Assembly (NCBI GenBank): GCA_022823625.1
Contig: JAJEHQ010000011.1
Location: forward strand, 22,889-86,888
DNA length: 64,000 bases
Origin: Gammaproteobacteria bacterium
Lineage (GTDB): Bacteria; Pseudomonadota; Gammaproteobacteria; Arenicellales; JAJDZL01
Direction of reading: 5' to 3'
Part shown: in pieces, positions 5,786-58,956 of the stretch
Numbering within the stretch: position 1 is the first letter of the stretch
Layout: each line of letters starts with the position of its first letter
The notes under the pieces: generated by a model
The model's database searches: none
Seen by the model: the letters and a program-made list of their open reading frames with translations, nothing else
Told to the model about the DNA's origin: nothing
Program-made: the position numbers and the translations under genes

Positions 5786-7411
5786 TTAAATTTCCCGGGC
5801 GCGCTCGCGTAGTACGAACTTCTGTATTTTTCCAGTTGAGGTTTTAGGCAAGGGTCCAAACACGACCGATTTCGGAATCTTATAGTGTGCGAGATTCTGT
5901 CTGCACCAGGTAGTTACATCCTCTTGTGTGAAAGAGTGTTCCTTTCCCGGGGCGATTGTGATGAACGCACAGGGCGTCTCGCCCCACGTTTCGTCCGGTT
6001 TGGCGACTACCGCTGCTTCCATGATGCTCGGATGGCGGTATAGAACATCTTCGACCTCGAGACTGGAGATATTCTCACCTCCCGAGATGATGATGTCCTT
6101 GGACCGGTCTCGCACTTCAATGTAACCGTCTTCATGGGTTACACCTAAATCTCCCGTGTGATACCAGTCGCCGGCAAACGCATCCCGAGTCGCGTCTTTG
6201 TTTTTCAAATAGCCGCGCATGACGGTATTGCCGCGTACCATCAACTCTCCCATCGTTGACCCGTCTTCCGGTACGGGTTCCATCGTATCCGGATCAATGA
6301 CTCTGACGTCTTCCAATGTTGGATAGTTCACACCCTGCCTGGCCATCATCGCTGCTCTTTCATCCAGTGAACTGCCGTCCCATTTTTCCTGCCACGCGCA
6401 GACGGTTGCAGGTCCATACGTTTCCGTCAATCCATAAAGGTGAGTGACCCGAAATCCCAACTTTTCCATCTCGGCAATCACCTGACTAGGTGGTGCAGCT
6501 CCACCAGTTGCGACCTCCACGACCCAATCAAACTTGATTTTTTGTTCCTCAGGCGCATGGACAAGCATGTTTAGCACAATTGGAGCGCCGCACATGTGGG
6601 TGACATGATTTTCTTTTATTGAAGGAAAGATATACGCAGGGTCAACCTTTCGAAGACATACATGGGTAGCGGAAACAGCAGTGACTGCCCAGGTGAATGT
6701 CCAGCCATTACAGTGAAACATAGGCAATGTCCAAAGATACACACTGCGGCTGTCCAGTTGAAAAGTCAGTGCATTGCCGAGCGCGTTGAGATATGCGCCG
6801 CGATGATGAAACACTACCCCTTTGGGATTGCCGGTTGTTCCAGATGTGTAGTTGAGACAAATCGCCTGCCACTCGTCCTCCGGTACTAGCCATTGGTAAT
6901 TCGAATCGCCCTCTTCAAGCAAAGATTCGTAATCAGTTTCACCGATCAGATCCCCGCCATCAGCATAGGGGTCATCAATATCAATCACTGTCACTTCGTG
7001 TTTGTGTTGCTGAAGCGCTTCACGGATAACAGGAGAAAATTCTCGGTCAGTAAGCAGTATCTTGGCTTCGCCGTGTTGAAGTGTGAAGCTGATCGTCGCG
7101 GCATCCAGACGATAATTGAGCGCATTCAACACCGCACCGCACATCGGCACACCGTAGTGTGCCTCAAGCATGGCCGGAGTATTCGGAGACATGATCGCGA
7201 CGGTGTTACCAATACCAACACCTCTTCCCGCCAGCGCACTTCCCAGTCTCCGGGCGCGACTGTATAGTTCGCTGTAGGTGTATGTAATATCACCATGAAC
7301 AACAGCAACCTTGTCAGGAAAGACCCGGGCCGTCCGCTCCAGAAAAGTGATCGGGGTTAGAGGATGATAATTTGCTGGATTCTTGTCCAGATGTTGTTCG
7401 TAAATGCTCAC
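5786..7411 (-). CDS. AMP-forming acyl-CoA synthetase/ligase (medium-chain type)
   Basis: YTSGTTGNPKGV AMP-binding motif, TGDLG, SGGENISS, C-terminal KTSTGKIQK. The track ORF extends to 7537. A GTG at 7411 (VSIYEQHLDKNPANY) matches typical N-termini of this family better; start is uncertain. Confidence 0.8.
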   Translation of the reverse strand: MSIYEQHLDKNPANYHPLTPITFLERTARVFPDKVAVVHGDITYTYSELYSRARRLGSALAGRGVGIGNTVAIMSPNTPAMLEAHYGVPMCGAVLNALNYRLDAATISFTLQHGEAKILLTDREFSPVIREALQQHKHEVTVIDIDDPYADGGDLIGETDYESLLEEGDSNYQWLVPEDEWQAICLNYTSGTTGNPKGVVFHHRGAYLNALGNALTFQLDSRSVYLWTLPMFHCNGWTFTWAVTAVSATHVCLRKVDPAYIFPSIKENHVTHMCGAPIVLNMLVHAPEEQKIKFDWVVEVATGGAAPPSQVIAEMEKLGFRVTHLYGLTETYGPATVCAWQEKWDGSSLDERAAMMARQGVNYPTLEDVRVIDPDTMEPVPEDGSTMGELMVRGNTVMRGYLKNKDATRDAFAGDWYHTGDLGVTHEDGYIEVRDRSKDIIISGGENISSLEVEDVLYRHPSIMEAAVVAKPDETWGETPCAFITIAPGKEHSFTQEDVTTWCRQNLAHYKIPKSVVFGPLPKTSTGKIQKFVLRERAREI

Positions 7412-7728
7412 TTCAAATTGAATGCACTGTTGTAATTTGGAAAATTTTACCCTGCGATGAAGATGCGCCTTTGCCTTATTGACATCGTGTAAAAATTGGA
7501 CTTCAAAAGTTGCTGACAAAATGAGAGAAATTCTCAAATTTTCCTGTCAATCAGACCAGCGATGCGAAACCTCAGTTCACTAGGAAAAATTGTTACAGGG
7601 TGGTCAAGATTTCGTGAGAATAATTGACCGGAATTCGCAAGTTTTTCAATTTCTCATTGTTTCTAAAATTGAGACACGACATTCAGATTGTCGAACTTGG
7701 CTCTGGGTTAGTACTGCTGTCTGCAAGG

Positions 7729-8970
7729 TCAAGACCATAAAGTAGAGATTGGGGCGGCAATCAAACGATCACCGAATGGAAGTGTTAAATTGTGATCGTA
7801 TAAAACGAGCCCAAGCACAAATTTATCACCGCATGCGTGCGCTAGACTGCGTAGACCTGCAAAGTCCTTTTTGCTTACACTCGCTGAGGCTTTTACTTCT
7901 ATACCGACAACATAACCACGCATATTTTCGATCACAATATCGACTTCATGTTGATTGTGTTGGCGAAAGTGTGAGAAGAAATACCGCTCTTCGGACCAAC
8001 TGGAAAGTTTCAATAACTCGCCAAGTATAAAACTCTCAAGAATCGGCCCAAACCAGGTTCTGTCGTGTTCAAGAGGATGTTGAGAGACGCCTTTTAGCAC
8101 AGCCAGTAATCCCGAATCAAGAAAATGAAGTTTGGGAGATTTTGCAAGTCGTTTTAGTCTGTTTGTAGTCCATGGACGTAATGGATGAATCAGTAATAAT
8201 TGTTCAAAAACTCTGACATACTTTTTTGTTGTCACATGATTCATTCCAACCATCGATCCAATTTTTGAAAAGTTAGCAAGTTGTCCTGACAACTCGGCAA
8301 GTGTCTGGAGCAATTCGGGCATTGCGTTTAACTGATCAATTCGTGTGATATCGTAAACATCCCGTCGAATAATAGCGTCAATGTAGTCCAGATACCAGTC
8401 CCGTCGACGGTGTCCACTCGGACGTGTAAGAGCTTCAGGATATCCACCTGCGAGCACAACTTCAGCAAGCTTATTGTCAATCAATAAATTCTTTGTCGGC
8501 ATTGAGATTTTTCGGGCGAAAACATCTGACAGAAATGATGAACGTGAATCGTTCAGCTCTGACTGTGACAAGGGCAATAAACGAATCATCGAAATACGGC
8601 CAGCAAGCGAATCTGCAAGTCGTGGAGATTTAAGAAAATCTGCGGAGCCCGTAAGCAAAAAACGTCCGGGCCGAGAATCAGAATCTACAGAATATTTAAT
8701 TGCCAGAATTAATTCTGGAACCCGATGTACTTCGTCTATAACCGCACGATCAAGAATACGTATGAAACCAACTGGATCATCTGATGCCGTTTTGCGTATT
8801 GTTAAATCGTCAAGTGAATAATATGGCATATTATCATCTGCGATTTTTTGTGCAAGCGTCGTCTTTCCAGACTGTCGGGGACCAGAAATAAATACGACTC
8901 GAGTATCGCTTAGCGCTTCTCGAACGCGGTCTTCAACAAAACGCGGATACATTCCAGTAGTCAATGTCAT
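7729..8970 (-). CDS. AAA+ ATPase of the COG1373 / DUF4143 type (function unknown)
   Basis: Walker A GPRQSGKTT, Walker B-like AVIDEV, 413 aa with the C-terminal region typical of this family. The gene looks AT-richer than its neighbours by eye. Confidence 0.7.
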   Translation of the reverse strand: MTLTTGMYPRFVEDRVREALSDTRVVFISGPRQSGKTTLAQKIADDNMPYYSLDDLTIRKTASDDPVGFIRILDRAVIDEVHRVPELILAIKYSVDSDSRPGRFLLTGSADFLKSPRLADSLAGRISMIRLLPLSQSELNDSRSSFLSDVFARKISMPTKNLLIDNKLAEVVLAGGYPEALTRPSGHRRRDWYLDYIDAIIRRDVYDITRIDQLNAMPELLQTLAELSGQLANFSKIGSMVGMNHVTTKKYVRVFEQLLLIHPLRPWTTNRLKRLAKSPKLHFLDSGLLAVLKGVSQHPLEHDRTWFGPILESFILGELLKLSSWSEERYFFSHFRQHNQHEVDIVIENMRGYVVGIEVKASASVSKKDFAGLRSLAHACGDKFVLGLVLYDHNLTLPFGDRLIAAPISTLWS

Positions 8971-52041: not shown

Positions 52042-53289
52042 TTGACCGAATTTCAGGCAGTTCTAGGTATCGTTGCAATCATCGCAACAGGATGGGCGCT
52101 AAGTGAAAATAGGCGCGTTTTCCCTTGGCGAATCGTCATTGCAGGGCTTAGCGTTCAGATCGTATTCGCTGTTATCCTGCTTAAATTTCCCGCGTCTCAA
52201 ACAATATTTGTTCCAATAAACCAAGGTATCGGAGCACTGCAACAGGCAGTCGATTCTGGAACATCATTGGTATTCGGATACTTAGGTGGCGCTCCCTTGC
52301 CCTTTGAGGAAAGTTATCCTGGAGCAGCATTTGTTTTCGCATTTCGCGCTCTTCCGTTGGTAATCGTATCAAGTGCGGTTGCAGCTGTCTTGTACTACTG
52401 GCGGGTACTTCCATGGGTTGTGAGAGGGTTTGGATGGCTTCTTGGAAAAGCACTTCGTTTAGGAGGAGCTGCGAGTTTCGCAACCGCGGCTAATGTTTTT
52501 TTGGGAAGTGTGGAAGCTCCGCTGCTAATCAGACCTTATCTGGAACGACTAACTCGGGGTGACTTGTTTGTATTGATGGTTGCCGGTATGTCTACCATCG
52601 CTGGCACCGTTTACGTTTTATATGCCACCATTTTGCAATCAATCATTCCCGATGTTGCAGGCCATCTTCTGACAGCTTCCCTGATTAGTGCTCCCGCTGC
52701 AGTAATGCTGGCCCGATTAATCATTCCGGAAGATACGCAGCTTGAAGCAGCCGAAGTGTTCAGAGTTCCTCGACTATACGAAGGCACAATGGATGCTTTA
52801 ACTCAGGGTACTATTGCCGGATTACGGCTTTTTGCCTACATCATCGGTATGGTTCTTGTTCTGGTTGCTCTTGTCGAGTTGGTAAATATCATTCTTGGGT
52901 CTATTTTCGACATAGGTGGACAACCACTCACAATGCAGATGATTCTCGGCTGGATTTTAGCGCCGGTTGCATGGCTACTTGGAATTCCCTGGAGTGAGTG
53001 CTTTACAGCTGGACAACTGCTAGGAGCAAAAGTCGTGTTAAACGAGCTCATTACCTACATAGAAATGGCATCAATGTCTCCAGAAACATTAAGCCAGGAA
53101 AGTCGCCTGATTCTGACTTATGCAATGTGCGGATTCGCAAATTTTGGCGGTTTAGGTGTGATGCTCGCCGGTTTACTTTCTCTTGTTCCGGAAAGACGTA
53201 TTGAGATCATGGGGTTGGCAATGAAAACTCTGGTTGCAGGAAATTTAGCCGCGTACATGACTGCTGCAATGGCTTCGTTGATGGCATAA
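52042..53289 (+). CDS. NupC/CNT-family nucleoside transporter
   Basis: 415 aa multi-TM. N-terminal LGIVAIIATGWALSENRR and C-terminal CGFANFGGLGVM motifs typical of the CNT family. TTG start. Confidence 0.8.
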   Translation: MTEFQAVLGIVAIIATGWALSENRRVFPWRIVIAGLSVQIVFAVILLKFPASQTIFVPINQGIGALQQAVDSGTSLVFGYLGGAPLPFEESYPGAAFVFAFRALPLVIVSSAVAAVLYYWRVLPWVVRGFGWLLGKALRLGGAASFATAANVFLGSVEAPLLIRPYLERLTRGDLFVLMVAGMSTIAGTVYVLYATILQSIIPDVAGHLLTASLISAPAAVMLARLIIPEDTQLEAAEVFRVPRLYEGTMDALTQGTIAGLRLFAYIIGMVLVLVALVELVNIILGSIFDIGGQPLTMQMILGWILAPVAWLLGIPWSECFTAGQLLGAKVVLNELITYIEMASMSPETLSQESRLILTYAMCGFANFGGLGVMLAGLLSLVPERRIEIMGLAMKTLVAGNLAAYMTAAMASLMA

Positions 53290-53862
53290 AGAGACATAGA
53301 TGGAAAAAGAGGCTTCACCATTGCTCCGGAAATTGGGAGATAGAGTAATCGGACAGATAGGGAGGTACTAACAGGTAATTTCCAACGGCGCGGATTGAGT
53401 GGCAACTCCTAGACATCGTGCTATGGGCGGGTTCAAATACTCCTGGGTCCTTTAGATTGGGTGCGTGTCCGACTGAAATCACGTCAGAAAATAGGGAACT
53501 TGATTAGTGAATGGATTGGAGGGATAACCATCGGTTTTGTACGCAGCAATCGCCACTATGATGGTAGGTGAATTGAAATTCGCGGAACTCAATTTAAACC
53601 GCTGTTGACAGCTTTGAGTCAGCCAGTGCACATTGAATCCGGGCCTGCTGAATATGCGATACCAGTCGGCCGCACATCCGAAGGAGAAGTGCTCAGGGCA
53701 TCCAGCTCGGCCGACCATAAATCCTCGTGTAGGAGTATGATCGAACCAATTATCGCAACTCAGACAGATAACCGAATAGTCCAGCAGCATCCTGAATTTG
53801 GTCTTGATAGATGCGACATATTTCGATATACTTCTACTATATACTACATTAGGAGAATGTGA

Positions 53863-54108
53863 ATGCGTAGCGTTTCGCTAATGACTGCCAACCAGAATTT
53901 TTCCAAATTAATCAAACAAGTTGAGAGCGGCGAAAATTTCATAATTACGAGACGCGGACTTCCGGTAGCCAAGCTGACGCCTCATCAGTTGGACAAAACG
54001 GCAGACCCCGATTGGGTCTCCGCGTATGAACGGATGATGGCACATATGGATGAGGGTGTATCACTCGCGGGCCTTAGGGTCAAGCGTGAGGAGCTTTATG
54101 ACCGTTAA
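53863..54108 (+). CDS. Phd/YefM-type antitoxin (VapB)
   Basis: 81 aa; ANQNFSKLIKQVESGENFIITRRGLPVAKL. Preceded by AGGAGA and by two ATATACT direct repeats (53826, 53839). Confidence 0.8.
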   Translation: MRSVSLMTANQNFSKLIKQVESGENFIITRRGLPVAKLTPHQLDKTADPDWVSAYERMMAHMDEGVSLAGLRVKREELYDR

Positions 54109-54562
54109 AGGGCGTTTCACCCTGGATACCAACATTCTGATCTATGCTGTTGACCGTGACGCGGGACACAAACACGATTACTCAAAATCCCTTGTGGGAC
54201 AGGCGGCTCTTTGTGACTGCGTTTTGACGGTTCAAGTGCTAGGTGAGTTTGTTCATGCGACAACCCGCAAGAACTTGCTGGATATTTCCCATTCAAGCAA
54301 ATTCGTGAAAGACTGGTTAGAGGTGTTTGAAACAGCATCTGCCACCGACTTAGTGCTTCTTGAGGCAATTGACACCGTTGAAAGCCATAAGCTGTCATTC
54401 TGGGATGCAATGCTTTTGGTCACTGCCCGACGGTCGGGATGCTCAGCGCTCCTTAGTGAAGATTTGCAGGACGGGTGGCGACTACAAGGTTTAGAAATCA
54501 TTAATCCTTTCGCTACAGATGCCCCGGCGCGTCTTCAGGACTTCATTAAAAACGACTTTTAA
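54098..54562 (+). CDS. vapC: VapC PIN-domain toxin
   Basis: The ATG at 54098 overlaps the antitoxin stop. FTLDTNILIYAVD, later FWDAML and LLSEDLQDG PIN acidic residues. Confidence 0.82.
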   Translation: MTVKGRFTLDTNILIYAVDRDAGHKHDYSKSLVGQAALCDCVLTVQVLGEFVHATTRKNLLDISHSSKFVKDWLEVFETASATDLVLLEAIDTVESHKLSFWDAMLLVTARRSGCSALLSEDLQDGWRLQGLEIINPFATDAPARLQDFIKNDF

Positions 54563-54587
54563 TAACGAGCTTATGCTTGAGCAAAGG

Positions 54588-54875
54588 TCAGTGATTGGAC
54601 TTAAGAGATGCAATCCCTAGCATTAGTTCCTGAGCTTCAATGACTCCTTTTCTTAGTACCAGGGATTCCAGAGCTTTCAACCAACTTTCATAGTAAGGTG
54701 CTTCAGCATTTGTAGCGATCGCCTCCCCAAGTGAGTTGCTCCACTCGGCCCAACTGAACAAGCCCTGTTCGTGTAACTTCACAGTCAAGGCAAATGCATG
54801 CGCCTCCCATGGAGCTGCAAATACAGGCTCTTCACCGTTGCGATAAAACTTCGAAATTGAAGAGTCGGTGGACAC
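54588..54875 (-). CDS. Nitrile hydratase accessory (activator) protein
   Basis: 95 aa; EEPVFAAPWEAHAFALTVKLHEQGLFSWAEWSNSLGEAI resembles the beta-homolog accessory family. 1-nt overlap with the upstream gene. Confidence 0.75.
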   Translation of the reverse strand: MSTDSSISKFYRNGEEPVFAAPWEAHAFALTVKLHEQGLFSWAEWSNSLGEAIATNAEAPYYESWLKALESLVLRKGVIEAQELMLGIASLKSNH

Positions 54876-55219
54876 TATTCTTCGACCAGATAAGATTCAA
54901 AGAGATCGACATAAATGGCGCCGCGACGAGATTCATCTGCCCAAATATCTGCAGCTTCAAATCGCACACTGTAAAGACGCTGTGCTTGTTTAATCCCGTC
55001 GGCATGCAGGTCCGGGAAAATGAACATGCCGTGATCCGAGGCAATTTGGCCGCGGTGTCCTTGAACATATTCCGGCAGACGAATGTGGCCAGCATGATTG
55101 AGCACTTTTGCCGTCACTGAATCGCCGACGGAAAACTTCGCTTCACCATCATCAGCCATTTTGGCGCTGCCGCCTCTTTTCAGAGTTGGCCAGATGTCTT
55201 CTGCACTCAGTGCACTCAT
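54875..55219 (-). CDS. Nitrile hydratase beta subunit, C-terminal half as a separate polypeptide
   Basis: 114 aa; FSVGDSVTAKV...GHIRLPEYVQGHRGQI...FPD...LYSVRFEAADIW matches the C-terminal beta-barrel domain of NHase beta. Confidence 0.8.
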   Translation of the reverse strand: MSALSAEDIWPTLKRGGSAKMADDGEAKFSVGDSVTAKVLNHAGHIRLPEYVQGHRGQIASDHGMFIFPDLHADGIKQAQRLYSVRFEAADIWADESRRGAIYVDLFESYLVEE

Positions 55220-55530
55220 CAGGAATCACTCTTTGAAAGTTCAGACATCCGTTCGCGGATTTCCTCTTCAGTCAGAAGTCCCTTCTCCACCAGCAGCAGA
55301 CTTAATCCATGAGCCCACTTTTCGTAGTAGGTGGAAGCAAGGTACTCTGGGTCTGGCATCCGTTCCCGGGCATATCGCGCCATATCGAGATTCCACTCAC
55401 CCAAAAATCCACAGGCTACTGTAATGGCGAACGCGCGTTTTTCCCACTCGCGATGAAAAACCGGCTCGTCTTTCTCTGGTGCGATGGGACCTAGACCGGT
55501 CTTACCGCCTAAATCGTGTGCACCTTTCAT
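55219..55530 (-). CDS. Nitrile hydratase beta subunit, N-terminal half as a separate polypeptide
   Basis: 103 aa; [16 protein letters not shown]...[15 protein letters not shown] matches the NHase beta N-terminal domain. Stop/start junction is TGATG at 55219. Confidence 0.8.
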
Positions 55531-56141
55531 TGAATCACTTCCGGAGACAGTGCGAGCCCTGTTCCAATCATGGAGTCGCGGGTTACCAACTCAGCGAGTT
55601 CACTTTCCGACAGGTTTTCAGTACCTTCTGGACGCATCGGAATCACCAGGTACCGTACTTCCGCAGTACTGTCCCAAACACGAATTTCTACATCCTCGCC
55701 AAGTTCAACACCAAACTCCGCAAGTACACTCCTTGGTTCAGAAACTGCTCTCGCACGGTAGGGCGCTGACTTGTACCAGACAGGCGGCAATCCAAGTACA
55801 GGCCAAGGATAACAAGAGCAGAGCGTGCACACAACCATGTTGTGAACGGTTGGTGAGTTTTCGAGAACAACCATGTCTTCGCCCTGACGCCCTTCAAATC
55901 CGATTTCACGAATCGCGTCTGTCGCATTGTGCAGCAGTCGATGAAGATAATCTGGATTACACCACGCTCGGGCAACGACCCGAGCACCATTCTGTGGACC
56001 TACCCGATGCTCGTAGATATCGATCAACTCATCCAGAGCGAGTGGATCGACCAGCCCTTTTTCTATCAGTAGTGATTCCAGGGCCTTAACCTTGAGTTCA
56101 ACCTCTGAAGGGGGATGGGCATGCTTATGTTTGGAACTCAT
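55527..56141 (-). CDS. nthA: Nitrile hydratase alpha subunit, cobalt-type metal site
   Basis: [15 protein letters not shown] metal-binding claw (Thr variant). The ATG at 56141 is preceded by AGGTGG; the track ORF extends to 56162. Confidence 0.88.
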
Positions 56142-56242
56142 CAATAACCACCTGAAAAGCAATTTATGGTATTAACCTTATGATATTCAAATTCAGGCAA
56201 TTGTGAAACTGGCAAGAACTGAGTTGATTGATTAGGAATGCT

Positions 56243-57010
56243 TCAGACAAAAAACTGGGCGACAATCATTGCACCACAGCCTAGCAGAGCAACTGCAACG
56301 GTACGCTGCATGGTAATGGCAGAAATCTTATGTGCAATACGCGCTCCAATCAGCACGCCTGAAGACAGCCCGACCGCTACTGGGACGGCTAGTGCCCAAT
56401 CGATGGTACCATGAATGACGTGACCTAGCGTTGCGAACGGCGCAATAGGAATCTGAATCGCCATGCTCAAGCCGACCGCGACCATGATTGGAAAATCTAG
56501 CAATAGAAGAGTCGGGATCAGGAGCAATGGTCCACCCGTACCGCTCAATGAAGAGCCATACCCGACAGCCAAACCGACCAGTATCAATGCACCATTGGGA
56601 ACGCGGTGGATGCCGAGGCCACGGTTCTCACTTGATGACGAAAGGAATGCACGCAAACCCGACCCGATCACCAGTGTTGCCATGATAACTTCAAGCACCA
56701 GTGATGACACTGCAAGGACTGTAACCGACCCTAGGTACGCACCGGGTGCTGCACCGATCGAAATGAACAGTGCTTTATCCCAGCGAATTGAACCACGCTT
56801 TGCGTAGGCATAGTTTGCGAATATCGCATTCACGATAAATCCTGCCATACATGCGGGAATGACGATGTGAATGTCAATACTTGCGACGTAAACTAGAAAT
56901 GGGATAATCAGAATGCCGCCGATTCCGCAGGTACCGATTAACACACCCACCAGAAAACAAAATCCAGTGGTGACGGAATAGAACAAAACGGGCGTACTGA
57001 GGACGTCCAT
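56243..57010 (-). CDS. TauE/SafE-family (DUF81) anion exporter
   Basis: 255 aa, ~8 TM, Gly-rich repeated halves (GIGGILIIPFL ... GTGGPLLLIPTL). Confidence 0.75.
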   Translation of the reverse strand: MDVLSTPVLFYSVTTGFCFLVGVLIGTCGIGGILIIPFLVYVASIDIHIVIPACMAGFIVNAIFANYAYAKRGSIRWDKALFISIGAAPGAYLGSVTVLAVSSLVLEVIMATLVIGSGLRAFLSSSSENRGLGIHRVPNGALILVGLAVGYGSSLSGTGGPLLLIPTLLLLDFPIMVAVGLSMAIQIPIAPFATLGHVIHGTIDWALAVPVAVGLSSGVLIGARIAHKISAITMQRTVAVALLGCGAMIVAQFFV

Positions 57011-57062
57011 TTGAATCTAGATCAGGAAATTTGCCCCGCTCGGTTGGGGCAGTGGACAAAAA

Positions 57063-57392
57063 TCAAATGCCGAAAGACGATCCGCAACCACAGGTAGTGG
57101 ATGCATTCGGGTTTTGCACGAGAAATCGAGCGCCCATCAGATCGTCCAAGTAATCGACTTTGGCTCCCATAAGGTATTGGATACTGAGTGAATCGACCAG
57201 TAGGGTAATTCCATTTTCTTCAATGACGAAATCATCATCCTGCTTCTCCGTTTCCAATTGAAATCCATATTGGAATCCGGAACAGCCGCCGCCCTCAATA
57301 TAGACTCGAAGTCCGATGTCATTGTCGGACATCAGCTGCGATACGCGCTTTGCTGCGCTCGGTGATATTTCTACAGGTGTGCTGTTTTCCAT
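57063..57392 (-). CDS. erpA: Iron-sulfur cluster insertion protein (A-type carrier)
   Basis: GGGCSGFQY and C-terminal CGCGSSF motifs; 109 aa. Confidence 0.88.
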   Translation of the reverse strand: MENSTPVEISPSAAKRVSQLMSDNDIGLRVYIEGGGCSGFQYGFQLETEKQDDDFVIEENGITLLVDSLSIQYLMGAKVDYLDDLMGARFLVQNPNASTTCGCGSSFGI

Positions 57393-57987
57393 GGAATAAG
57401 AACACTCAATTCGAGTTCAGACGATTTCGGCAATCATTCGTCTGTGGATCTCAAATTATATTGGTAATTTTCCGCCTGCGCTTATTTCCAGGAAGTGTCA
57501 GAAATAATGTAGATCCGATAGAGCGGAAATTCAACGTTGATATTGTCTGGACAACCAAATAATCGCTGGTCCCGAATCTAAGGCGTTGGTCAGGTGATAA
57601 GGTCGCTAGGGGCTATCTACCAATACATGTGTGCTTAGATATCAAAACTTAGCTTTCCTCAAAATTGCCTGATTTTGCAAAAAAAACAATGCTCGGAATG
57701 TACTCTCCTGCCTGCAGTAGTGTTAACACTTTTGCGACTGATTCAACCTATAAAGAGATTGAAAAGAAGTTCTTGCAATACGGCTAATTTGAATATCATA
57801 TCCTCCATATCTATGCAACCCCCTGTTGCTTCGAATGCAGGCTGTTAGTGCTTTTTGGCCTTTCTGATTTTCTTTCAATTGAAACGTGTGAACATTCAGT
57901 TCCTATAGACCTATGCTCTTACGATACTGAATTGATACAGATTCAACAAAACTAACAATTTCAATTTTCTTCAGTTTCCGACCTTAA

Positions 57988-58956
57988 GTGATTCAATCAG
58001 GCACCTCAAATCAGGCGCTTTCCGTATCCAACCTAAAGAAAACCTACTCCAACGGCAGAATCGCACTGAAGGGAGTGTCCTTTTCAGTTGAAGAGGGGGA
58101 TTTCTACGCACTGCTCGGAAGAAACGGAGCTGGTAAATCAACAACCATCGGCATTACCTGTTCGCTGGTTACCAAGTCATCCGGCAAGGTCTATATATTT
58201 GGTGTAGATATCGATCAGGACTTTGGTCGTGCCAAGTCAAATATTGGCTTGGTGCCACAGGAAATCAATTTCAACCAGTTTGAAACACCATGGAATATCG
58301 TGATCAATCACGCCGGTTACTACGGAGTCCCGCGCACCAAAGCGCTTCTTCAGGCTGAAAAGTACCTGACGACTCTGAATTTGTGGGATTACCGCAATAA
58401 CACGGCGCGCAGGTTGTCAGGTGGCATGAAAAGAAAACTGATGATTGCTCGCGCACTTATGCATGAACCCCGATTGCTGATACTGGATGAACCGACTGCC
58501 GGCATTGACTTTGAAACACGGCTGTCGATGTGGGAATTCTTGCAGGATCTGAACCAGAAGGGTGTCACCATCATTCTGACGACGCACTACCTTCAGGAAG
58601 CGGAAAAATTGTGCCGCAACGTGGGGATAATTGAACTTGGTGAATTGATTCTGGATAGTGACATGAAGTCCTTGTTCAAACAACTCAACCAGGAAACCTA
58701 TGTTCTTGATCTGGTACAGCCGATTGATTCACAAGTTCTGCCGCACGAGTTGAACGACTCCGTTCGATTAGTCGACCCAACGACAGTCGAAGTGGATATC
58801 GCCCGAAACAGTAGCATCAATGTAGTGTTCGAGACACTATCGAAACACAATATCCACGCCATCAGCATTCAAACCAAGTCCAACCGTCTGGAAACGCTGT
58901 TTATGGAACTATTGAGAAGAGAGGCCATAGAAATGCAGATGAATCAATCAGAATGA
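57988..58956 (+). CDS. ABC transporter ATP-binding protein (ABC-2 / YadG-like)
   Basis: GRNGAGKST Walker A, LSGGMKRKL signature, LILDEPT Walker B. GTG start. Confidence 0.85.
   Translation: MIQSGTSNQALSVSNLKKTYSNGRIALKGVSFSVEEGDFYALLGRNGAGKSTTIGITCSLVTKSSGKVYIFGVDIDQDFGRAKSNIGLVPQEINFNQFETPWNIVINHAGYYGVPRTKALLQAEKYLTTLNLWDYRNNTARRLSGGMKRKLMIARALMHEPRLLILDEPTAGIDFETRLSMWEFLQDLNQKGVTIILTTHYLQEAEKLCRNVGIIELGELILDSDMKSLFKQLNQETYVLDLVQPIDSQVLPHELNDSVRLVDPTTVEVDIARNSSINVVFETLSKHNIHAISIQTKSNRLETLFMELLRREAIEMQMNQSE

Follow-up and report, generated by a model that had tools for sequence, protein, structure and literature searches.

The window analysed here is a 64,000-nt stretch of a contig from a Gammaproteobacteria bacterium, to which all coordinates refer unless another locus is named, and its subject is a group of four minus-strand genes that very probably forms an operon for a cobalt-type (Co-type) nitrile hydratase whose beta subunit is encoded by two coupled genes, together with a maturation helper. 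An earlier account made from the sequence alone (the sequence-only reading) had described four minus-strand genes with overlaps of 4, 1, and 1 nt, and every coordinate and overlap was confirmed on the reverse-strand sequence and in a list of open-reading frames (ORFs). The genes are as follows:

55527-56141, minus strand: nitrile hydratase alpha subunit, 204 aa, ATG at 56141, stop TGA at 55529-55527
55219-55530, minus strand: beta-N, the beta N-terminal domain as a polypeptide of its own, 103 aa, ATG at 55530, stop TGA at 55221-55219
54875-55219, minus strand: beta-C, the linker tail and C-terminal SH3-like domain as a polypeptide of its own, 114 aa, ATG at 55219, stop TAG at 54877-54875
54588-54875, minus strand: accessory (activator) protein, 95 aa, GTG at 54875, end at 54588

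The alpha and beta-N genes share an ATGA overlap at 55527-55530, beta-N and beta-C, which lie in different frames, overlap by 1 nt at 55219 (TGATG), and beta-C and the accessory gene overlap by 1 nt at 54875 (TAGTG). The alpha ATG is preceded by AGGTGG, 6 nt upstream, and the 11-residue alpha N-terminus is conserved in the relatives L003 and L016, which favours the start at 56141 over an upstream TTG at 56162. The N-terminal tail (56107-56141) is rich in histidine, similar to the tails of relatives (MSHHHHNDP and MSHPHDHAH), and is possibly metal-binding. The same four genes were called by two other pipelines. Both beta halves carry the NCBI name 'nitrile hydratase subunit beta', and the names of the proteins in public databases are 'nitrile hydratase subunit alpha' or 'nitrile hydratase subunit beta'. 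On contig JAJEFY010000019.1 of assembly GCA_022820165.1, alpha and beta-N are identical to those of the window and beta-C differs by 2 residues, so the window stems from a near-identical genome; a look-up of the exact beta-C sequence gave no record.

All four products were assigned by curated family models. The alpha subunit matched Pfam NHase_alpha (PF02979) with an expectation value (E) of 4e-89 and 297 bits (cutoff 27.2), and scored 306 bits against the NCBIfam nitrile hydratase alpha equivalog TIGR01323, above its cutoff of 249.85, while its score against the thiocyanate hydrolase model TIGR03887 was 189.9 bits, below the cutoff of 291.45. Beta-N matched NHase_beta_N (PF21006; E 4e-41), beta-C matched NHase_beta_C (PF02211; E 2e-27), and the accessory protein exceeded the cutoff of the accessory-protein equivalog TIGR03889 (73.9 bits, cutoff 46). 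The accessory protein also gave a weaker match to PF21006 (E 4.5e-14), and is by sequence a paralogue of the N-terminal domain of beta. The alpha subunit contains a 10-residue metal motif of the Co-type that includes CTLCSC; the metal-binding motif of the family is C-(T/S)-L-C-S-C and the Co-type signature is V-C-T-L-C-S-C-Y, in which Thr and Tyr mark cobalt enzymes. The family models and the motif thus bear out the claim of the sequence-only reading that the locus encodes a cobalt-type, nitrile-hydratase-like enzyme of three polypeptides with a beta-homologous accessory protein.

Among solved structures, the top match of all three chains was the Co-type enzyme of Pseudomonas putida, 3QXE (alpha 6e-89, beta-N 5e-21, beta-C 2e-16), followed by other Co-type enzymes and then by iron-type (Fe-type) enzymes. 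Chains of thiocyanate hydrolase came last among the PDB matches of alpha and beta-N, and none was matched by beta-C at E 0.01. Beta-N aligned without gaps to residues 1-92 of 3qxe_B, so that the numbering of the solved enzyme carries over, and residues 13-111 of beta-C aligned to residues 115-216 of the same chain, which puts the break near residue 103 of the P. putida beta subunit (219 aa). On the 226-position beta model TIGR03888, beta-N covers positions 1-99 and beta-C positions 117-223, and each half misses the full-length cutoff of 152.2 with 126.8 and 103.4 bits, respectively. In place of a single two-domain beta subunit of ~210-230 aa there are two ORFs, yet all domains and conserved residues are present, and the combined length of 217 aa (103 + 114), compared to 208-225 aa in unsplit relatives, indicates that nothing was lost at the break.

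The residues expected of a Co-type active site are kept on both beta polypeptides. Across 78 loci, Arg52, Tyr68, Tyr69, and Trp72 of beta-N and His45, Arg47, Pro49, and Tyr51 of beta-C are invariant. Solved Co-type structures show hydrogen bonds from two beta arginines to the oxidised alpha cysteines, and they place Tyr68 and Trp72 around the substrate site. Because the conserved residues are distributed over alpha, beta-N, and beta-C, the active-site shell would, by comparison with those solved enzymes, be built by three chains. Split and unsplit relatives agree at the pocket positions beta37 (Thr), beta48 (Leu/Ile), beta51 (Ser/Ala/Gly), and beta72 (Trp), indicating that the fission itself probably did not alter substrate choice.

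The separation of the N- and C-terminal beta domains into ORFs with their own ATG codons, as the sequence-only reading had described it, was confirmed and is shared by many other genomes. When beta-N was searched against 5.8 billion proteins, 88 homologues with 53-94% identity came back, all of them 60-145 aa long, nearly all 100-110 aa, and many encoded on megabase contigs. In a set of 81 loci, composed of 80 from a scan of one genome per species and L001, the beta subunit is split in ~25, with a beta-N ORF of 99-110 aa followed by a beta-C ORF in another frame (beta-C is missing from L014), and is a single ORF of 208-225 aa in the remainder. Carriers of the split include Arenicellales (complete long-read chromosomes among them), Kiloniellales, other Alpha- and Gammaproteobacteria, Rokubacteria, SAR324, and unclassified bacteria. 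In a full-length alignment, the break of 25 loci falls on one shared column within the variable linker between the domains, and every beta-C gene opens with a start codon at a homologous position. The two beta genes overlap by 1 or 4 nt in 22 of the 25, the others showing a 14-nt overlap, a 1-nt gap, and a 217-nt spacer (L009), and the junction sequence itself varies among loci (TGATG; ATGA, GTGA, or TTGA). An accessory homologue follows beta-C in the other split loci, except in the truncated L014 and in L077, where it is fused to a SnoaL domain.

Compared to the closest relative, L002, the ratio of nonsynonymous to synonymous substitution rates (dN/dS) was 0.10 for both beta-N and the accessory gene, 0.12 for alpha, and 0.19 for beta-C; compared to more distant Arenicellales, synonymous sites are saturated and the proteins are still 65-88% identical. 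All four genes are under purifying selection.

An exhaustive profile search with the beta-N alignment collected 3797 family members from a fragment-rich library whose sequence lengths cannot be used to estimate the frequency of the split. Members of a beta-N cluster with 206 and 313 aa were considered as fused forms and rejected as a clustering artefact, as they proved to be alpha subunits and one alpha/beta-N fusion call. The latter, the 313-aa P0291 from a JGI metagenome, joins alpha and beta-N through an out-of-frame stretch at the ATGA overlap and is probably a frameshift or gene-calling artefact; it is the reason that alpha and beta-N sequences fall into one 90% cluster.

Several loci depart from the layout of the window. 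Alpha is separated from the beta genes by 1-1.4 kb in two Arenicellales relatives, so the operon tolerates a gap: in L003 (6584-8000), a CCDC90-like coiled-coil gene (7053-7565) is inserted between alpha and beta-N, and in L016 (6989-8000), the same interval holds an 86-aa ORF and a 149-aa protein with a gag-type aspartyl protease domain. In L077 (8001-9503), a SAR324 metagenome-assembled genome (MAG), the gene after beta-N and beta-C encodes a 283-aa fusion of the accessory protein to a SnoaL_2 domain at its C-terminus; no alpha gene was found within 8 kb upstream, where a 485-aa membrane-protein ORF lies on the opposite strand. L014, a Gammaproteobacteria MAG, has alpha and a 110-aa beta-N (7378-8333) without beta-C or an accessory gene, and directly after beta-N comes an opposite-strand 360-aa ORF that resembles 4-hydroxyphenylpyruvate dioxygenase by eye. 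This locus is possibly a decaying copy.

The history of the split was examined in a neighbour-joining tree of concatenated alpha, beta-N, and beta-C sequences (75 loci, 390 columns, 200 bootstraps), the deep nodes of which are unresolved. The 13 split loci from Arenicellales, including the window, form one clade with 100% bootstrap, and most of the other split loci lie near it with weak support. Two split Rokubacteria loci group with unsplit Rokubacteria (63%), and the split L069 (5978-6627) is the sister of the unsplit L051 (8001-8663) with 100% bootstrap; the fused beta of L051 has an in-frame Met exactly at the position of the L069 beta-C start. This pattern requires at least 2-3 fission or re-fusion events, always in the same linker. 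Unsplit relatives, ordinary two-subunit enzymes that are the nearest kin outside the split clades, are 60-73% identical to the window in alpha and 50-66% in beta-N. In a separate alpha tree, 78 split and unsplit relatives and an archaeal alpha stand apart from Streptomyces alpha and from the gamma subunit of thiocyanate hydrolase with 99% bootstrap. The sequence-only reading had allowed that alpha might nest among nitrile hydratases with an ordinary, unsplit beta subunit, and this held in part: alpha does belong to the P. putida-like Co-type group together with those unsplit relatives, but in its own clade every one of the 13 Arenicellales orthologues is split.

The closest known counterparts share the chemistry and differ in how beta is encoded. 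P. putida NRRL-18668 (3QXE, with an activator of the P14K type) and the alpha-first Co-type enzymes of Rhizobiales and Burkholderiales have the same gene order of alpha, beta, and accessory gene, and enzymes of the P. putida type have the same cobalt motif and the same conserved beta residues, but the P. putida beta subunit is one chain of ~219 aa, whereas that of the window is two chains of 103 and 114 aa. Separate N- and C-terminal parts of beta in a Co-type enzyme are known, as in the window, from ScNHase and from ToyJKL of S. rimosus (PMC7329996, PMC13243292, PMC12648386). ScNHase, from Streptomyces canus CGMCC 13662, consists of AnhD (10.4 kDa), AnhE (11.4 kDa), and AnhA (21.3 kDa), and works without an accessory protein, AnhD itself being a chaperone (PMC7329996). 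The three-subunit enzymes of Streptomyces are described as having no accessory protein and occupying their own branch (PMC7329996, PMC13243292).

A Streptomyces plasmid cluster, L082, chosen by architecture and genus, served as a stand-in for ToyJKL and AnhDEA. Its genes encode, in order, a 111-aa 'nitrile hydratase', a 102-aa 'SH3-like' protein, nthA, an aquaporin, a hypothetical protein, and a HoxN Ni/Co transporter, with no accessory gene. The order is thus beta-N, beta-C, and alpha, whereas the window has alpha first and an accessory gene; identities to the window are 34% for beta-N, 32% for beta-C, and 52.7% for alpha, and the L082 beta-C lacks the ~25-residue linker segment that opens the beta-C of the window. 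Of the traits of the Streptomyces type, the window therefore has the separate beta halves, but neither the absence of an accessory gene nor a split of common descent. Given the low identity to L082 and the 99% bootstrap separation, the fission in the window lineage is independent of that in Streptomyces. Thiocyanate hydrolase ScnA/B/C of Thiobacillus thioparus (2DD4) has a homologous fold, a cobalt centre with oxidised cysteines, and equivalents of alpha and of a split beta; it is the most distant of the solved relatives, and the window alpha fails its curated model. The likeness of the window operon to ToyJKL, AnhDEA, and thiocyanate hydrolase is, by these comparisons, convergent architecture and not shared split ancestry.

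A further arrangement was seen on the Roseomonas marmotae plasmid NZ_CP061099.1 (L083, 2062-6615), where scnC lies beside a gene for one 283-aa protein in which NHase_beta_N and NHase_beta_C are fused, followed by cbtB/cbtA cobalt transporter genes and a TauE/SafE gene.

Given that the frame changes exactly where one half of beta ends and the other begins, the outcome expected of a 1-nt indel, and that the close pair L069 and L051 differs only in this way, the split could be read as an indel artefact or as a recent pseudogenising frameshift in an ordinary beta gene. However, 88 of 88 beta-N homologues are short, the break recurs in ~25 species-level genomes, including complete chromosomes, with differing junctions and one 217-nt spacer, and each half has its own start codon and a dN/dS of 0.10-0.19. 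Because the split is conserved, the junctions differ, and both halves are under purifying selection, an artefact or fresh pseudogene is excluded, and with it the sequencing error at ~55219 that the sequence-only reading had named as one way to refute its claim; we give this explanation next to no weight. It is just as hard to credit a programmed ribosomal frameshift at the beta-N/beta-C junction that would yield a full-length beta. The beta-C frame is indeed -1 to that of beta-N in most loci, with an overlap at the beta-N stop codon, but no conserved slippery heptamer is present, the junction sequences and frames vary (TGATG, ATGA, GTGA, TTGA, the 14-nt overlap, and the 1-nt gap), the 217-nt spacer of L009 contains stop codons, and each beta-C gene opens with a start codon of its own, homologous in position. 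The three subunits of the Streptomyces enzyme appear as separate bands (PMC7329996), consistent with separate products.

Two other enzymes share the three-polypeptide plan. Thiocyanate hydrolase, which converts SCN- to COS and NH3, is also three-subunit with a CTLCSC cobalt motif, and a TauE/SafE gene adjoins both the window operon and the Roseomonas scnC cluster. The alpha subunit nevertheless passes the nitrile hydratase equivalog and falls short of the thiocyanate hydrolase model, thiocyanate hydrolase gives the weakest PDB matches for alpha and beta-N and none for beta-C, and alpha is 43.6% identical to the scnC product compared to 60-73% to ordinary nitrile hydratases. In addition, alpha comes first in the window, whereas the beta halves come first in the Roseomonas cluster, and TauE is a synteny neighbour within Arenicellales only, lying ~4.7 kb from alpha in five genomes. 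These comparisons effectively rule out thiocyanate hydrolase as the identity of the enzyme. An AnhDEA orthologue, or a nucleoside or natural-product nitrile hydratase of the ToyJKL kind (which converts toyocamycin to sangivamycin), would fit the three-polypeptide Co-type architecture and the gene for a NupC-type nucleoside transporter 1.3 kb downstream (52042-53289). This is a slightly less remote prospect but still very unlikely, given the reversed gene order, missing accessory gene, and low identities of L082, the separation of Streptomyces in the alpha tree, and the lack of deazapurine genes in the region examined (33.7-62 kb). The NupC gene was rejected as a hint of a nucleoside nitrile, as among the loci only the window, L001, and L002 have it with the operon.

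With a Co-type nitrile hydratase as the preferred reading, the four genes would act as one operon for the cobalt-dependent reaction R-CN + H2O -> R-CONH2, probably expressed as a single transcript from the gap between the TauE gene and alpha. The fission of beta would fall in the flexible linker between the N-terminal helical and the C-terminal SH3-like domains. Alpha would hold Co(III) through the three cysteines of CTLCSC, two of them oxidised post-translationally as in solved Co-type enzymes, with beta-N supplying Arg52, Tyr68, and Trp72 and beta-C the second conserved arginine (Arg47). By homology, the complex would be (alpha/beta-N/beta-C)2, restoring the usual alpha2-beta2 architecture, and the overlapping stop and start codons may couple translation and so keep the pieces at equal amounts. 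For the 95-aa accessory protein, its homologues predict a role in loading cobalt into alpha and in swapping the loaded alpha into the apo-enzyme (self-subunit swapping). As a precedent, the three-subunit Co-type nitrile hydratases AnhD/AnhE/AnhA (ScNHase; PMC7329996) and ToyJKL (PMC12648386) are active enzymes.

One match to a sigma-70-like promoter was found in the 101 nt that separate alpha from the TauE gene:

56180-56207, minus strand: TTCACA-16-TATCAT, 10/12, consensus match only

Several points weigh against this picture of the operon. The activity, metal content, and expression of this enzyme and of its clade are predictions, and the proposed stoichiometry and the role of the accessory protein come from homology only. 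The chaperoning by AnhD, the beta-N-like subunit of S. canus, complicates the proposed division of labour between beta-N and the accessory protein (PMC7329996). The match at 56180-56207 is possibly the operon's own promoter, but the number of sigma-70-like sites in the region equals the shuffled expectation, making its support weak and the match no better than chance. No pathway support lies nearby, as no amidase, aldoxime dehydratase, or deazapurine gene was found in 33.7-62 kb. In this the sequence-only reading was right, and a nitrile stays as the substrate it had left open, whereas the thiocyanate it had listed beside it is contradicted by the TIGR03887 score. A scan of every frame of the 64-kb window for an amidase-signature motif also found none.

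Whether the fission brings an advantage was considered because the split is stable in the 13-genome Arenicellales clade and arose or reverted at least 2-3 times at the same linker. An adaptive rather than neutral fission, through a free beta-N that takes part in cobalt loading or regulated assembly or through a habitat-specific nitrile, seems to us improbable, though less so than any of the rivals weighed above. Beta-N is a paralogue of the chaperone that swaps subunits, and in free form it might, by analogy to AnhD, share in cobalt loading. Host nitriles such as aeroplysinin-1 would be candidate substrates if these Arenicellales live in association with animals or sponges. The aeroplysinin-1 nitrile hydratase of the sponge Aplysina was rejected as a physiological link, as its properties do not fit: the partially purified enzyme showed bands of 26 and 72 kDa, worked best with Mn, and yielded peptides without nitrile hydratase homology (PMC3766881).

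Three-piece nitrile hydratases were already known from Streptomyces, and the enzyme of the window is a modest variant that adds no new kind of enzyme or chemistry. In the literature searched, which left out most subscription journals, no account was found of a proteobacterial or marine split-beta nitrile hydratase, or of one with alpha first and an activator, or of the spread of this form among uncultured lineages. The three-polypeptide format is no Streptomyces curiosity: it recurs independently in widespread uncultured lineages from sea and soil, always by a break in the linker between the domains, and the window combines it with a classical activator. Split and fused sisters such as L069 and L051 offer a natural experiment on how fission bears on assembly, stability, and cobalt loading in an enzyme family of industrial importance. 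For annotation, two short 'beta subunit' genes of this kind should not be repaired or flagged as frameshifted. The interest is moderate, evolutionary and enzymological, and would hold no surprise for a specialist.

The operon sits among housekeeping genes: ccmABCD, the NupC transporter gene, and a Phd/PIN toxin-antitoxin pair lie on one side, and genes for a TauE/SafE membrane protein, ErpA, an ABC-2 transporter, and rpsI on the other, with pantothenate, folate, and ribosomal RNA-modification genes farther out. In Arenicellales, TauE-ErpA and ccm form a synteny backbone that carries variable inserted genes. TauE/SafE was rejected as a functional partner of the enzyme, as it is adjacent only in close relatives and absent outside the order. 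No convincing terminator candidate was found at the operon, and an Rfam scan of 53000-58500 at E up to 1 returned no riboswitch or other RNA element.

The PhdYeFM antitoxin and PIN toxin genes (53863-54562, plus strand) are convergent with the accessory gene and lie 26 nt from its end; of the PIN gene, L002 retains only fragments, with 82% identity over two short pieces. Directly upstream of alpha in six Arenicellales genomes, L004 (6164-7366), L005, L008, L009, L010, and L015, is a gene whose 400-aa product resembles a signal peptide at its N-terminus and matches no Pfam family; this gene is absent from the window, and farther upstream in L004 are genes for a CbbQ/NorQ-type AAA protein and a NorD-like VWA protein.

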